Assembly (NCBI GenBank): GCA_963736655.1
Contig: CAVTPM010000015.1
Coordinates: forward strand, 1,369,755-1,433,754
Direction of reading: 5' to 3'
DNA: 64,000 bases
DNA from: an uncultured Actinomycetota bacterium
GTDB lineage: Bacteria; Actinomycetota; Actinomycetes; DATJPE01
The position numbers and the translations under genes were made by a program. The notes under the pieces are model-generated. The model ran no database searches, was not told where the DNA came from, and worked only from the letters and a program-made list of their open reading frames with translations. Positions 58,944 to 64,000 of the stretch are shown one piece after another (positions within the stretch are counted from its first letter, which is position 1; every line of letters begins with the position of its first letter).

Positions 58944-60121
58944 CGGACTCCGAGGACGGGCGCGAGGTCCTCGGCCAGCAGCACGTGCAGGCGAGGGCGC
59001 ACCTGCCACTGGTCGGTGAGAGCGAGGTAGTCGCGCGCCCGAGCCGCGTCAGGGGTCGCACCCGTTCGGACCGCACGGATCATCGTGTTGCGTGGCGTGT
59101 GCTGCGACGCGACGAACTCGAGGACGTCGACCCGGTAGCCGAGCAGCCGAAGCAGCTCCGCACGCAGCGCGTCGGTCAGGACGTCCGCGAACCGCTCCCG
59201 AAGGATGCCGTCCCGAGCCAGGAGGGCGTACGGCTCCGGTGGCGACGCCGCACGCAGCTGCCGCTGCAGGTCGTGGTGGCAGCACGGCGCCGCCAGCAGC
59301 ACCGGGGCCTCCCAGCGAACGGCCCGCGCGAGCGCGTCGTCGGTGGCCGTGTCGCACGCGTGCAGGGCCAGGACGACGTCGAGCCGGGCTTCGCCGAGGT
59401 CCACCTCGGCATCGACGATCGACGACTCCACGAACGACACCTGCTCCGAGCAACCGAGCGTCGCGGCGACCTCCTCGTTGTGGCTGCGCGCTTGAGCCTT
59501 GACGTCCACCCCGACGACCCGTGCCTGGTGCCCGAGGTCGGCGGTGAGGTGACGGAGGGCGGCGAAGGTGAGCACCGCGTTGCCGCACCCGAGGTCGACG
59601 ACGCCGGTCGGCCGACCGGTTGCGGCCGGGAGCACCGGGTCGAGCAGTCGGAGGAACGCCTCCACCTGACGCCGTTTGTCCGCACCTGCCCCGAGAGCCG
59701 CGAAGAGCGGGTCATCGTCCGCGAGCACCCGTCGTCGCTTGCGGTCGTGGTCGGTCTGCTGGCTGCGATCGGCTGCCGCCCGGTGGACCTGAGCCTCGCC
59801 CTTCTTGGTCACGCGCACCTGCACGGTCGCGTCGACGGTCTCGACGTGCCAGTTGCCGTACGGCTCCGCCAGCAGCGCGTCGACTTCGGTCTCGGCGCCC
59901 GCCCCGAACTCCGCATGCCTCGTCGTGGTCTGAGTCCCGTCCCACGCCTCGAGGAGCAGGCGGCGACCACCCTTGAGGTCCACCGGTCGGAGCACGACGC
60001 GAGTGGGTTCCGGTACGGGCAGTCCCCGGCGCCGACCCGCAGCGACGGCGCGGACCAGCTGGTCCGGGTCCAGGAGGATCGCGCGGACGTCGGCCAGCGC
60101 GTCGGTGAGCTGCTCGGGCAC
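58940..60121 (-). CDS. class I SAM-dependent methyltransferase (Methyltransf_32-like)
   Basis: KRRQVEAFL, VVDLGCGNAVLTF, LALHACDTATDDALA, APCCHHDL, EFVASQHTPRNTMIRA. Confidence 0.88.
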   Translation of the reverse strand: MPEQLTDALADVRAILLDPDQLVRAVAAGRRRGLPVPEPTRVVLRPVDLKGGRRLLLEAWDGTQTTTRHAEFGAGAETEVDALLAEPYGNWHVETVDATVQVRVTKKGEAQVHRAAADRSQQTDHDRKRRRVLADDDPLFAALGAGADKRRQVEAFLRLLDPVLPAATGRPTGVVDLGCGNAVLTFAALRHLTADLGHQARVVGVDVKAQARSHNEEVAATLGCSEQVSFVESSIVDAEVDLGEARLDVVLALHACDTATDDALARAVRWEAPVLLAAPCCHHDLQRQLRAASPPEPYALLARDGILRERFADVLTDALRAELLRLLGYRVDVLEFVASQHTPRNTMIRAVRTGATPDAARARDYLALTDQWQVRPRLHVLLAEDLAPVLGVR

Positions 60122-60296
60122 GGCTACCTCAACAACGAACCGAGCAGCACGAGGAGGATCATCGAGACCCAACGCGGCCGGCACGAGCCAGCGTCGGGTA
60201 CGGGGATCCACGGACGCCGAGCGTACGTCACGGGTCGGCGCGCATGCAGCGCCGAGCCAAGGTCGTGCCCAGGCGACTCCGGCTAGGGTCGGCGAC

Positions 60297-60524
60297 ATGC
60301 CCAGCCGCGAGCTTCCCGAGGCGCCCCAGGCCGATGCCGTGGTCCCGGTCCTCCTGGGAACGGCCTGCTGGCTGGTCGCGCTGGTCGTCGGTCTCGTGAT
60401 CGACGCTGCTCCGCCCTGGACGGGCATCTGCGCCGCAGGGTTCGGCCTGGGGCTGCTGGGGAGTGCGTACGTGCTTCGCCGACGAGCGGTCTACCGGCGC
60501 GCCGGGAAGTCGGCGGGCGGCTAG
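60297..60524 (+). CDS. DUF2530 family membrane protein
   Basis: PVLLGTACWLVALV...WTGICAAGFGLGLLG; syntenic with DUF3027. Confidence 0.75.
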   Translation: MPSRELPEAPQADAVVPVLLGTACWLVALVVGLVIDAAPPWTGICAAGFGLGLLGSAYVLRRRAVYRRAGKSAGG

Positions 60525-60542
60525 CCGTACCACCGACTTCGA

Positions 60543-61421
60543 TCAGCTGTGACCGAACTCGTCGTAGCCGAGGTCGTCCACCACAGGTGCTGGCAGCCCG
60601 GCGGGCTCACGGAGCCGCCGGGTGGCCGACGTGCCCTCGGAGTGGCCCCCGCAGCCATGGTCGAAGGTCACCACGTGTCCGTCGCTCGGTGAGAACACGT
60701 TGGCGCAGAGGCCGAACGCCTGCCCGAGCGCGCCACCGATGTGCACGAGGAAGCCGCAGCTGTCGCACGAGGCGGGCGCCTGCTCGGCGAGCGGAACCGC
60801 CGGTCCACCCGCACCGTTGAGCCATCGATCAGCCGCCTCTTCGCGGCCCTCGACGGAGAGCACGCGGCGACGGGCGAGCCCCAGGTCGCGTGCGACGAAG
60901 GAGACCTCGTCGTCGTCATCGTCCGCGGCTGACGACCAGCCCGGCTGAAGGCGTACGTCGTCATCGGCAGTGTGCAGGATGTCGCCGGGCCCGAGGTCGC
61001 CGGCCTGCAGGCGATCGGCCCACGGCACCCAGGGCGGAGCCAGCAGGGCTTCCGGCCCTGGCAGGTGGACCACCTCGTCGACGGTGACGACGCGACCACG
61101 CGGCACGCGCGTCACGGTCACGGCCCATCGCCAGCCTCCATAGCCCGGCAGGAGACTCGTGAACAGATGGGTCACGAGACGCTCGTCGTCGGCCTCGACG
61201 CCGACGTGCTCGCCGACGAGATCCGCGCCGACCAGATCGACAGCCGCGGCGCGCGCCAGGTCGACGGCAGCGACGCAAGCCGCGTCCGGGCGACCGCGGA
61301 CGGCACTCGCCGGTTGCGGGCTCGGCGCGTCGGTCGGCTCAGGGATCGCCGCGTCCACAGCCTCTGCTGTCTCCGGCCCCTCGGACGTCACGGTGCTCAC
61401 AAGCGTCGAGGGTAGCCCCAC
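60543..61421 (-). CDS. DUF3027 family protein
   Basis: LPGYGGWRWAVTV, EVVHLPGPEALLAP.WVPW, CDSCGF, FGLCAN..SPSDGHVV..DHGCGGHS. Confidence 0.88.
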   Translation of the reverse strand: MGLPSTLVSTVTSEGPETAEAVDAAIPEPTDAPSPQPASAVRGRPDAACVAAVDLARAAAVDLVGADLVGEHVGVEADDERLVTHLFTSLLPGYGGWRWAVTVTRVPRGRVVTVDEVVHLPGPEALLAPPWVPWADRLQAGDLGPGDILHTADDDVRLQPGWSSAADDDDDEVSFVARDLGLARRRVLSVEGREEAADRWLNGAGGPAVPLAEQAPASCDSCGFLVHIGGALGQAFGLCANVFSPSDGHVVTFDHGCGGHSEGTSATRRLREPAGLPAPVVDDLGYDEFGHS

Positions 61422-61468
61422 CTGAGGCCCGCGCCCGACCCGCCACCGAGCGAGCCAGCGGCCGACGA

Positions 61469-61846
61469 TCAGCCTTCCATCTGGTCGGCGACGGCACGCA
61501 GCATCTTCGAGACCTTGGCGGTGTCGGCGGGGTAACGGCCCCGACGGAGGCCGTTGCCGACGTTGTCGAGCACCTTGATGAGGTCCTCGACGAGGGCCGC
61601 CATGTCCTCGGCCGGACGGCGCTGCGCCTTCACGATGGACGGGAGCGGGTCGAGCAGGCGGACGGAGAGGGCCTGCTCGCCCTTCTTGCCCTCGGCGACG
61701 CCGAACTCCACGCGCGCCCCGGTCGGCAGCGCTTCAAGACCGTCGGGCAACGCTGAGGCATGGACGAAGACATCGCCGCCGTCATCGCGGGCGAGGAAGC
61801 CAAAGCCCTTCTCGGTGTCGAAGAACTTGACCTTGCCGGTGGGCAC
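61469..61846 (-). CDS. cold-shock domain protein with C-terminal extension (CspB type)
   Basis: VPTGKVKFFDTEKGFGFL..DDGGDVFVHASAL. Confidence 0.92.
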   Translation of the reverse strand: MPTGKVKFFDTEKGFGFLARDDGGDVFVHASALPDGLEALPTGARVEFGVAEGKKGEQALSVRLLDPLPSIVKAQRRPAEDMAALVEDLIKVLDNVGNGLRRGRYPADTAKVSKMLRAVADQMEG

Positions 61847-61920
61847 GAGCGTCTCCTCGCGATCGAGAGCGTCGGTGACAGCCACCGAGCCGGATGTGCG
61901 GGCCGGACGCCCGCACGGGC

Positions 61921-63362
61921 TCAGCCTAGCCCGGGCGTGGGGCTGAGGGCCTCGTTCATCGAGCCGCTCCGGAAGCCGCGGGGGTCGACCTCGACGTGGT
62001 CGAAGCCGGCCAGGCGTACGGCCTCGGCGACCGAGGGGTCGGCGACGACGTCCTCGACGGCGTCCGCGTCCACCTCGATGCGGGCCGAGCTGCCCAGGTC
62101 GCGGACACGCAGGTCTGTCACGGCGATGCACGCCTCGTCGAGCGCGGCACGCAGCGCCGCCTCGGCCCGGTCGACGCGGGCCAGCCGGGCGGGGGTCACC
62201 TCGATGCCGTAGGCCACCCGGCTCGACAGGCAGGCCGCCTGCGGCTTGTCCCACGTCGGGAGGCCCCATCTGCGCGATGCCTCCCGGATCTGCGCCTTGG
62301 TCATCCCCACGTCCCGCAACGGGGTGACCGCGCCGCGCTCGTCGGCGGCCCGGATACCGGGTCGGAAGCCAGCCAGGGCGTCGTCGGCGTTGGTACCCGT
62401 GGCGACCGCCCGGATCGCCAGACGGTCCGCCTCCGGGCGGAGCACGTCGAGCAGCTCGGCCTTGCAGAAGTAGCAGCGGTCGGCGGTGTTGGCCCGGTAG
62501 CCGTCGCGGGCCAGCTCATAGGTCCGCGGGGCGAGATGTCGGACGCCGAGCGCGCGGGCGAAGTCCTGCGCCTGCTCGAGCTCGCCCGTGGCCAGCGAGT
62601 CGGAGACCGCCGTCGCGGCCACCACGTGAAGGGGGCCGAGCGCCTCCACGGCCGCCGCGAGGAGGAAGGCCGAGTCCGCTCCACCGCTGAAGGCGACGAC
62701 CACGGAACCGAGCGACCGCAGGTGCGCATCGAGCGCCGCAAGGCGTACCTCCAGGAGGTGCTCCTCCAACCAGCCCGGGAAGGCGTGCAGCGAGTCGAGC
62801 ACCACATCGGCTCCGGCCGCTTCCAGGTCGGCCGCCGAGGAGCCCCCGGAGGTCACTCCGACCGCGACTGCGCCCGCTGCTCGGGCGCCTGCCACGTCCG
62901 CGGGGTGGTCGCCGACATAGACCGACGCCCCGTGCTCGCGGAGTGCCTCGCCCTTGGCCTCGGCCCACCGCCACCCCTCGAGCCTGTCGACGGCGAGCCC
63001 GAGGTGGTCGAGGTGGAGCTGGGCGTTCGGCGCGTACTTCGCGGTGACCACGACGCTCGCACCGCCGGCGGCGCGCACGGAGGCCAGGGCCTCGGCCGCT
63101 CCGGGGAGAGCCGGGGAGGACTCGATGGCCAGGTCGGGGTACAGCGCGCGGAACCGGTCGGCCATGGCCGGCACGTCGCGGCCGGGAACCAGTGCGCCAG
63201 CTCGACGTCCAGCGGCGGGCCGAGCCGGGACTGCACGAGCGCGACGTCGATGACCACCCCGGTCTCGGCAGAGAGCGCCTCGAGCACGGCGCCGATGCCA
63301 GGCCGTGAGTCGATGAGGGTCAGGTCGAGGTCGAACCCCACGACCAGGGGGTGGGGTGCCAC
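61921..63362 (-). CDS. larE: HAD-superfamily phosphatase fused to LarE-type ATP-dependent sulfur transferase (one frameshift near 63180, inside the HAD part)
   Basis: HAD: GFDLDLTLIDS, VVTAK, YVGDH..D. Same frame continues to the PP-loop VAFSGGADS, RCYFCK, TGTNADD, RPG, TWDKPQAACLSSR. Confidence 0.85.
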
Positions 63363-63607
63363 ACGCCCCACCCTAACCAGTCCGCCTTCCTCGCCGTCCG
63401 CGGAGCAACCGGTCCGAACGAGTGATGTCTGGTGACCTCGAGTGACAATTTCCGCCGTCCTTGACCAGATCAACGGCAAACATTGCTGTCAGGCACCGAC
63501 TTTGGCTGCAGCCCTTGCCTCCGCTGACCGCCTGGGGAAGGATCCGCCGCAGTCGTGTCCGTGCGACCGAGACCAGGTTCGGCGGACCTACCCTTGGAAG
63601 GACTTCA

Positions 63608-64000
63608 GTGGCTCCCTCTCCCACTCGACGAACCCGAGCCCTCGCTGCCGCGGTAGCCGTCGGTCTCGCTGGCGCCGGCATGGTCGTCGTCTCCCAGCCG
63701 GCCCAGGCCGGCCACCGGGACGCGACCGCCCGTGCCTCGTCCCCGTTCACCGCGGGCCGATACATCGTGCGCCTGGACGACGCTCCTGTCGCCGCCTACA
63801 GCGGCACCGTACGAGGCCTGGCCGCGACGAAGCCGGCTGCCGGCGCCAAGCTGAGCCGGTCGGCGCAATCGGTGACGACGTACCGGAGCTTCTTGGCCGA
63901 CGAACGCGCCCGGGTCCTCAAGGCCGCCAACGTCAAGTCCACCATCTACAACTACAGCTACTCGTTCAACGGGTTCAGCGCCGACCTCACGGCGGACCAG
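63608..64000 (+). CDS. 5' part of a secreted S8 (subtilisin-like) protease with I9 inhibitor prodomain (runs off the window)
   Basis: Signal peptide ending AQA; GRYIVRLDDAPVAAYSG...YNYSYSFNGFSADLT. Confidence 0.82.
   Translation, partial: MAPSPTRRTRALAAAVAVGLAGAGMVVVSQPAQAGHRDATARASSPFTAGRYIVRLDDAPVAAYSGTVRGLAATKPAAGAKLSRSAQSVTTYRSFLADERARVLKAANVKSTIYNYSYSFNGFSADLTADQ

Follow-up and report, generated by a model that had tools for sequence, protein, structure and literature searches.

A HAD phosphatase domain joined in frame to a CxxC...C-type LarE in an uncultured Actinomycetota bacterium

The HAD-LarE gene and its reading frame

The window analyzed here is a 64,000-nucleotide stretch of contig CAVTPM010000015.1 (assembly GCA_963736655.1, positions 1,369,755 to 1,433,754) from an uncultured Actinomycetota bacterium. 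Its minus strand carries, at 61921-63362, a gene that fuses a HAD phosphatase in frame with a complete Fe-S-type (CxxC...C) LarE. The gene is 1442 nt long as assembled, and it encodes 480 amino acids plus a stop once one missing base is restored. Its features are listed below in window positions, which are used throughout unless another contig or locus is named.

61921..63362, minus strand: whole HAD-LarE gene, from a GTG at 63362 to a TGA at 61921-61923
62749..63362, minus strand: HAD-superfamily phosphatase domain, COG0546/PGP-like with a C1 cap (Pfam HAD, HAD_2 and Hydrolase_like)
63176..63179, minus strand: site of the one-base deletion (..LAHWFPA / DVPAMADRF..), from DNA alignments with four relatives and the related locus L124
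62716..62778, minus strand: junction FPGWLEEHLLEVRLAALDAHL, from the AlphaFold2 model of the homologue P0003; conserved in 42 fusions
61924..62748, minus strand: LarE domain, a PP-loop ATP pyrophosphatase and putative sulfurtransferase of the pyridinium mononucleotide P2CMN (TIGR00268, phmmer and Foldseek)

The open reading frame (ORF) 61921..63174 (417 aa) contains the C-terminal half of the HAD domain and the full LarE, with no stop codon between them, and the HAD N-terminus with its GTG start at 63362 and motif I sits in another frame. An intact homologue from an NCBI metagenome-assembled genome, P0003, is 95% identical to the frame-restored 480-aa product. An in-frame fusion with a single indel inside its HAD part had been proposed from the letters of this DNA alone (hereafter the sequence-only reading). 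The coordinates, the motifs and the indel given there agreed with the ORFs and with the DNA alignments of the relatives, and the fusion itself proved real: the ORF is stop-free, the TIGR00268 match is full, and thousands of homologues of roughly 478 aa exist.

The junction FPGWLEEHLLEVRLAALDAHL was modeled as a single helix in which the HAD domain ends and the first LarE helix begins (residues 192-218 of the AlphaFold2 model of P0003; predicted local distance difference test 88.8, predicted template modeling score (pTM) 0.83). This junction was kept in the 42 fusion sequences compared, in which the catalytic residues of both halves were invariant. The sequence-only reading had also described the junction as free of a ribosome-binding site. 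Two GGAGG strings are in fact present there (62740-62775, minus strand), encoded by Glu codons and located near where the separate LarE genes of one family (f20, below) begin; the description holds in that no in-frame ATG, GTG or TTG follows these strings at a proper spacing. Internal initiation at the junction is hence not predicted from them. Scans of 60000-64000 with promoter, terminator and Rfam models gave no matches.

The missing base is the sole indel in the 1443-nt gene when compared with L124, the closest available DNA (91% nucleotide identity), which places it at approximately 63179. Four other relatives likewise have the base, and their DNA alignments place it at approximately 63177. 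The deletion is very probably an artefact of the assembly, which comprises 17 contigs (3.5 Mb, 82% complete) and in which rpoC occupies at least three frames and rpoB two (C2:298503-305760). The background was measured by aligning 52 long ORFs of a same-genus genome (G143, 230 contigs) to this genome. Over 68 kb of coding sequence that aligned, 40 frame changes were counted, or approximately 1 per 1.7 kb, with 20 of the 52 genes (38%) hit. A single frame change in a 1.44-kb gene matches this background rate.

Several observations weigh on the other side and would suit a genuine pseudogene, with real frameshifts in HAD-LarE, larB and larC and a nickel-pincer pathway in decay in this strain. Frame splits are present in all three lar loci, with larB and larC each divided between two frames, and five frame changes were counted in approximately 3.4 kb of lar genes, compared with approximately two expected (Poisson p ~0.05). 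Furthermore, no LarA homologue was found in the genome, and the nickel-pincer pathway is undergoing loss in this genus, in which LarC is gone and the LarE half is lost or degraded in three genomes. The excess of frame changes is, however, marginal. The essential genes rpoB and rpoC are frame-split too, and frame changes in 38% of the compared genes are explicable by assembly error only. Apart from the lost base, the window gene retains all conserved residues, unlike the decaying copies L023, L121 and L122 of its genus. A genuine pseudogene is hence considered very unlikely, and a pathway-specific pseudogenisation, as suggested by the three frame-split lar loci, was rejected as the principal interpretation after the background rate had been measured. 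For any "pseudogene" or "frameshift" seen in this genome, an assembly error should be assumed as the likely cause.

The LarE half and its nickel-pincer partners

The C-terminal 272 residues scored 282.5 bits against the NCBIfam model TIGR00268 (cut-off 150) over model positions 4-259 of 259, and a genome-wide profile search gave the same result. The PP-loop SGGADS is encoded at 62671-62688, the CYFC motif at 62464-62475, and the third cysteine, within AACLSSR, at 62230-62232; SGGxDS and all three cysteines were invariant in the 42 fusions. A phmmer comparison matched this half to the Lactiplantibacillus plantarum LarE structure 5UDQ (E 2e-29), and a Foldseek comparison of the AlphaFold2 model with 5UDQ, 5UDT and 6DG3 gave target-normalized template modeling scores of 0.74-0.86 at approximately 32% identity. 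In the 5UDQ alignment, the L. plantarum cysteine lies opposite an alanine, and the third cysteine of the window protein is the next residue. The CxxC...C motif was defined for Thermotoga maritima LarE, a catalytic, [4Fe-4S]-dependent enzyme whose third cysteine is located one residue past the position of L. plantarum Cys176 (PMC9283937). Ser180, Arg212 and Arg214 of L. plantarum LarE, which bind the 5'-phosphate of P2CMN (PMC9283937), align to the second serine of CLSSR and the two arginines of RVRD, and these were again invariant in the fusions.

The assignment to the CxxC...C (Fe-S) type made in the sequence-only reading is borne out by the invariant cysteines of CYFC and ACLSSR, and every computational test of membership placed this half with the Fe-S subtype of LarE. 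From these comparisons we infer its chemistry and substrate, namely those of a [4Fe-4S]-type, non-sacrificial LarE. P0003 and other homologues are named "ATP-dependent sacrificial sulfur transferase LarE" by NCBI/PGAP, with the HAD domain unmentioned. Because the CxxC...C motif is present, this name probably mis-states the chemistry of the homologues. The P0003 record is labelled Candidatus Limnocylindria, yet its gene and neighbours are actinomycete-like.

As the sequence-only reading noted, none of larA, larB and larC lies within the window. This observation was misleading with regard to the genome, since larC and larB were found adjacent to each other on the minus strand of the same contig (G000:C15:1847345-1848809), approximately 415 kb downstream of the window. 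They are flanked by a gene for a SEC-C-motif protein and by DUF4446/pheA. No obvious client of the cofactor was recognized among their neighbours (FAD-linked oxidase, glycerophosphodiesterase, SEC-C protein and pheA).

The occurrence of the lar genes was surveyed in 251 genomes sampled evenly from the class Actinomycetes. LarC was present in 103 of the 107 LarE-positive genomes and in 46 of the 47 genomes with the fusion, as opposed to 1 of 30 genomes with only the HAD gene (Fisher p 7e-54, uncorrected for phylogeny). LarB had essentially the same distribution over the genomes as LarC, usually with its gene approximately 250 nt from larC. In several genomes, among them G020, G111 and G134, a stand-alone LarE of the same Actinomycetes clade is encoded directly beside larB/larC.

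Relatives from the same genus that have no LarC form a natural series of LarE-half loss. In G045 and G075 (loci L023, L121 and L122), the LarE half stops early, at approximately residue 390, and conserved residues are missing from it (TGTNADD, FRPG, ACLSSR), and the HAD half is intact. In G099 (L040/L093), only the HAD is present, which is intact and ends in a linker remnant, FPEWLSGHL... The decay of LarE next to an intact HAD in these LarC-less relatives implies that selection on the LarE half is tied to the pathway, while that on the HAD half is not. A weaker LarB-like match (approximately 195 bits vs approximately 265) is retained in G045 and G075.

On present evidence, the role of the LarE half is in ordinary nickel-pincer biosynthesis, given that the genome encodes larB and larC elsewhere, LarE tracks LarC and LarB across the class, and LarE decays where LarC is absent. 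Two findings weigh against this assignment. LarA was not found in this genome, which is 82% complete, with the Pfam model Lar_N (PF09861) or by tblastn with a same-genus LarA-like protein. Also, one 98% complete genome (G209, locus L123) has an apparently intact fusion and no LarB or LarC match, the sole exception among the 47 fusion genomes. Together with the lack of lar genes in the window, they could be taken to mean that the LarE-like domain works outside nickel-pincer synthesis, where it would thiolate a different carboxylate or nucleotide and have the HAD for a partner in the pathway, and an orphaned or non-nickel-pincer LarE was indeed considered in the sequence-only reading. Such a role is extremely improbable in view of the near-perfect co-occurrence with LarC and LarB, the decay of the LarE half on loss of LarC, the full-length equivalog score with conserved P2CMN phosphate-binding residues, and the stand-alone members of the clade located directly beside larB/larC. 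The idea of an orphaned LarE is hence not supported.

The absence of LarA is not peculiar to the fusion. A Pfam Lar_N protein was detected in 48 of the 107 LarE-positive genomes of the class, and it is lacking from more than half of the sampled Actinomycetes that bear LarB, LarC and LarE. This genome and G143, its closest relative, are among those that lack it. Synthesis of the cofactor without LarA is a known pattern in hundreds of prokaryotes, and other users have recently been reported, namely a family with the AKR fold and an ornithine cyclodeaminase, the latter with a dinucleotide variant of the cofactor (PMC13524815). The LarA-less genomes with LarB, LarC and LarE fit the current search for new nickel-pincer enzymes (PMC13524815).

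The HAD half and the distribution of the fusion

Motif I of the HAD domain (DLDLT) is encoded at 63318-63332 and motif IV (GDHPAD) at 62896-62913; motif II is the threonine of VVVTAK and motif III the lysine of AEAKGE. All four motifs were invariant in the 42 fusions. The Pfam HAD model gave 35.2 for the part in the window and 43.5 for P0003, vs a cut-off of 27. None of the NCBIfam HAD equivalogs was reached, phosphoglycolate phosphatase (TIGR01449, PRK13222-type) giving 50.9 bits vs a cut-off of 180, and no pyrophosphatase or nucleotidase model matched the HAD domain above its cut-off. Sequence matches in the PDB were confined to uncharacterised COG0546 structures and, weakly, the HAD-like kinase PtkA. 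With its motifs complete, the N-terminal domain is predicted to be a catalytically competent phosphatase of the COG0546 type.

The sequence-only reading had stated that in actinobacteria this cold-shock gene normally has a stand-alone HAD gene upstream, and the conserved synteny confirmed an orthologous HAD in this position in other members of the group. When 37 fused HAD sequences were compared with 23 stand-alone ones, 56 columns were conserved at 90% or more with an identical residue, and no group-specific substitution was detected inside the domain. The identity was 0.59 between the fused and stand-alone groups and 0.60-0.66 within them. By this comparison, the HAD half is the same ortholog as the stand-alone HADs of genomes that have no pathway. 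Since this ortholog persists in such genomes, its job is probably independent of the cofactor; this independence, which we infer, is the most likely reading of the HAD activity. Conversely, approximately 50 genomes positive for LarE and LarC have no match to this HAD anywhere in the genome. Neither half needs the other, because HAD-only genomes and HAD-less LarE-positive genomes both exist.

A search of the protein collection yielded more than 6,500 matches, and the best 120 are nearly all 467-509 aa long with HAD Pfam domains, several of them named LarE by NCBI. The full fusion is present in Nocardioides solisilvae, N. speluncae and N. aestuarii, and in assemblies of Nocardioidaceae, Frankiaceae and Streptosporangiaceae. 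The arrangements in the class survey were as follows.

HAD-LarE fusion: 47 of 251 genomes
fusion with a truncated LarE half: 2 of 251
HAD and LarE matched as neighbouring places: 8 of 251
LarE alone: about 50 of 251
HAD alone: at least 30 of 251

Six of the eight neighbouring pairs belong to the family f20 (L113-L118; G019, G060, G089, G226, G194 and G242) and consist of two truly separate genes that occupy different frames and have a stop and a start of their own; the spacing is approximately 20-110 nt in five of these pairs and approximately 0.9 kb in the sixth. The sequence-only reading had named two separate genes in relatives as an arrangement that would speak against it, and this arrangement does exist in that one family. 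The remaining two pairs are frame-split fusions in error-prone assemblies.

The order of the locus is conserved in the related genomes, with a fusion, a LarE or a HAD gene followed by a 125-aa cold-shock-domain gene and then DUF3027. The corresponding neighbours in the window are the following.

61469..61846, minus strand: cold-shock-domain gene downstream of HAD-LarE (125 aa; CSD with a C-terminal extension), by Pfam CSD and synteny in related loci
60543..61421, minus strand: DUF3027 gene, the next conserved neighbour, by Pfam PF11228 (262 bits) and synteny in related loci

Beyond DUF3027, the related locus L124 has genes for DUF2530 and a GNAT acetyltransferase (L124:4389-5250) before Methyltransf_32, both of which are missing at 60490-60545 of the window. 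In a tree of LarE, the Actinomycetes sequences formed one clade (100/100), in which fused and stand-alone forms are mixed. The tree is compatible with a single origin of the fusion.

Relation of the two halves and comparison with known systems

The architecture, motif conservation, co-occurrence and synteny described above are direct observations. The explanation that we regard as probable is that the locus encodes a single two-domain protein of 480 aa, whose frameshift is an assembly indel and not a genuine lesion. Its C-terminal [4Fe-4S]-type LarE would feed the nickel-pincer nucleotide (NPN) pathway together with LarB and LarC, whose genes lie next to each other approximately 415 kb away. 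Its N-terminal HAD is the ortholog that stands alone upstream of csp/DUF3027 in actinomycetes without the pathway, and would have a cofactor-independent activity. The HAD and LarE genes, once neighbours, may have become joined helix-to-helix; this join would have been inherited widely in the class, and undone, or reduced by loss of one half, in several lineages.

Two points weigh against independence of the halves. HAD and LarE are fused or close neighbours in every examined genome that has both, and many families have retained the fusion, whose helical joint looks rigid (pTM 0.83); this hints at some functional coupling. HAD-type pyrophosphatases of COG0546 hydrolyse pyrophosphate. In a biochemical coupling of the halves, the HAD could accordingly serve LarE by hydrolysis of the pyrophosphate released after adenylylation, or by dephosphorylation of a pyridinium mononucleotide; the candidate substrates would be nicotinic acid mononucleotide (NaMN), surplus or mis-made P2CMN, PCTMN or P2TMN, or NPN itself, giving a nucleoside form of the cofactor. 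The distribution resembles a Rosetta-stone pattern, with the halves fused in 47 genomes and encoded by separate genes next to each other in six f20 genomes, and among the genomes examined the two halves are never apart when both are present. The conserved, continuous helix of the joint, the confident inter-domain model and the invariant HAD motifs would also suit a coupling, as would the variants of the cofactor scaffold (NPAD) that are now known (PMC13524815). Nevertheless, the same HAD ortholog, with its conserved surface unchanged, occurs in at least 30 genomes without LarB, LarC and LarE, and approximately 50 genomes with LarE and LarC have no such HAD. In addition, LarE retains the residues that bind the 5'-phosphate of its substrate, and the HAD domain falls below the cut-off of all pyrophosphatase and nucleotidase models. 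A biochemical coupling is hence considered rather unlikely.

The narrower proposal that the HAD is a pyridinium-mononucleotide phosphatase tethered to LarE, acting on the intermediates or the product of the pathway, appears decidedly unlikely. Such an enzyme might proof-read or recycle P2CMN, PCTMN and P2TMN, or might yield a dephosphorylated nickel-pincer nucleoside. The form of the cofactor made or regulated by many Actinomycetes would in that case differ from the NPN of lactic acid bacteria and would serve a client other than LarA. The dephosphorylation of a thiocarboxylated intermediate, which the sequence-only reading had put forward, is one form of this coupling; it found no direct support, and the distribution argues against it.

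A full-text search of the literature found no mention of a HAD-LarE fusion, and to our knowledge LarE has been studied only as a stand-alone protein. The sequence-only reading had allowed that the fusion might already be widespread and characterised as NPN synthesis; the former is the case, and for the latter no paper on the fusion was found. In approximately a fifth of the sampled Actinomycetes genomes, LarE is the C-terminal half of a HAD fusion, and neither the extra domain nor the likely Fe-S chemistry is apparent from its PGAP name. If the halves are independent, as we favour, the result is mainly a correction of annotation and a clean example of neighbouring genes that were fused, split and half-deleted. 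If they cooperate, there would be an extra step in nickel-pincer cofactor metabolism, such as pyrophosphate removal, clean-up of intermediates or formation of a dephospho form.

Among known systems, the HAD domain is close to the COG0546 phosphatases (Gph and PpaX; nearest structures 2AH5 and 3MC1), with which it shares the four motifs and a helical C1 cap and which gave its best, though weak, profile matches. It differs from them in scoring 40-50 bits against equivalog cut-offs of 180 or more, and because these scores are far below the cut-offs, a substrate is not transferable from the COG0546 equivalogs. It is also close to the stand-alone HADs upstream of csp/DUF3027, such as those of Streptomyces chumphonensis (L060), S. 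spiramenti (L057) and Nocardioides currus (L061), which are orthologous at 55-65% identity. The 56 highly conserved positions, the C-terminal FPxWL and the genomic position are all shared with the HAD of the window, whereas the stand-alone proteins end a few residues past FPxWL and their host genomes have no LarB, LarC or LarE. The LarE domain shares its fold and the family model TIGR00268 with L. plantarum LarE (PDB 5UDQ and related entries), which uses a single sacrificed Cys176 and has no CxxC, while the window protein has the three-cysteine cluster motif. It also resembles T. maritima LarE (PMC9283937), in the PP-loop SGGxDS, the CxxC with a distant third cysteine, the phosphate-binding Ser/Arg/Arg and the LarB/LarC partners. 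The T. maritima enzyme is stand-alone, and the window protein carries approximately 205 HAD residues ahead of LarE on the same chain. This architecture is what sets the fusion apart from the described LarE enzymes, and databases hold thousands of copies of it, many of which are named simply LarE.

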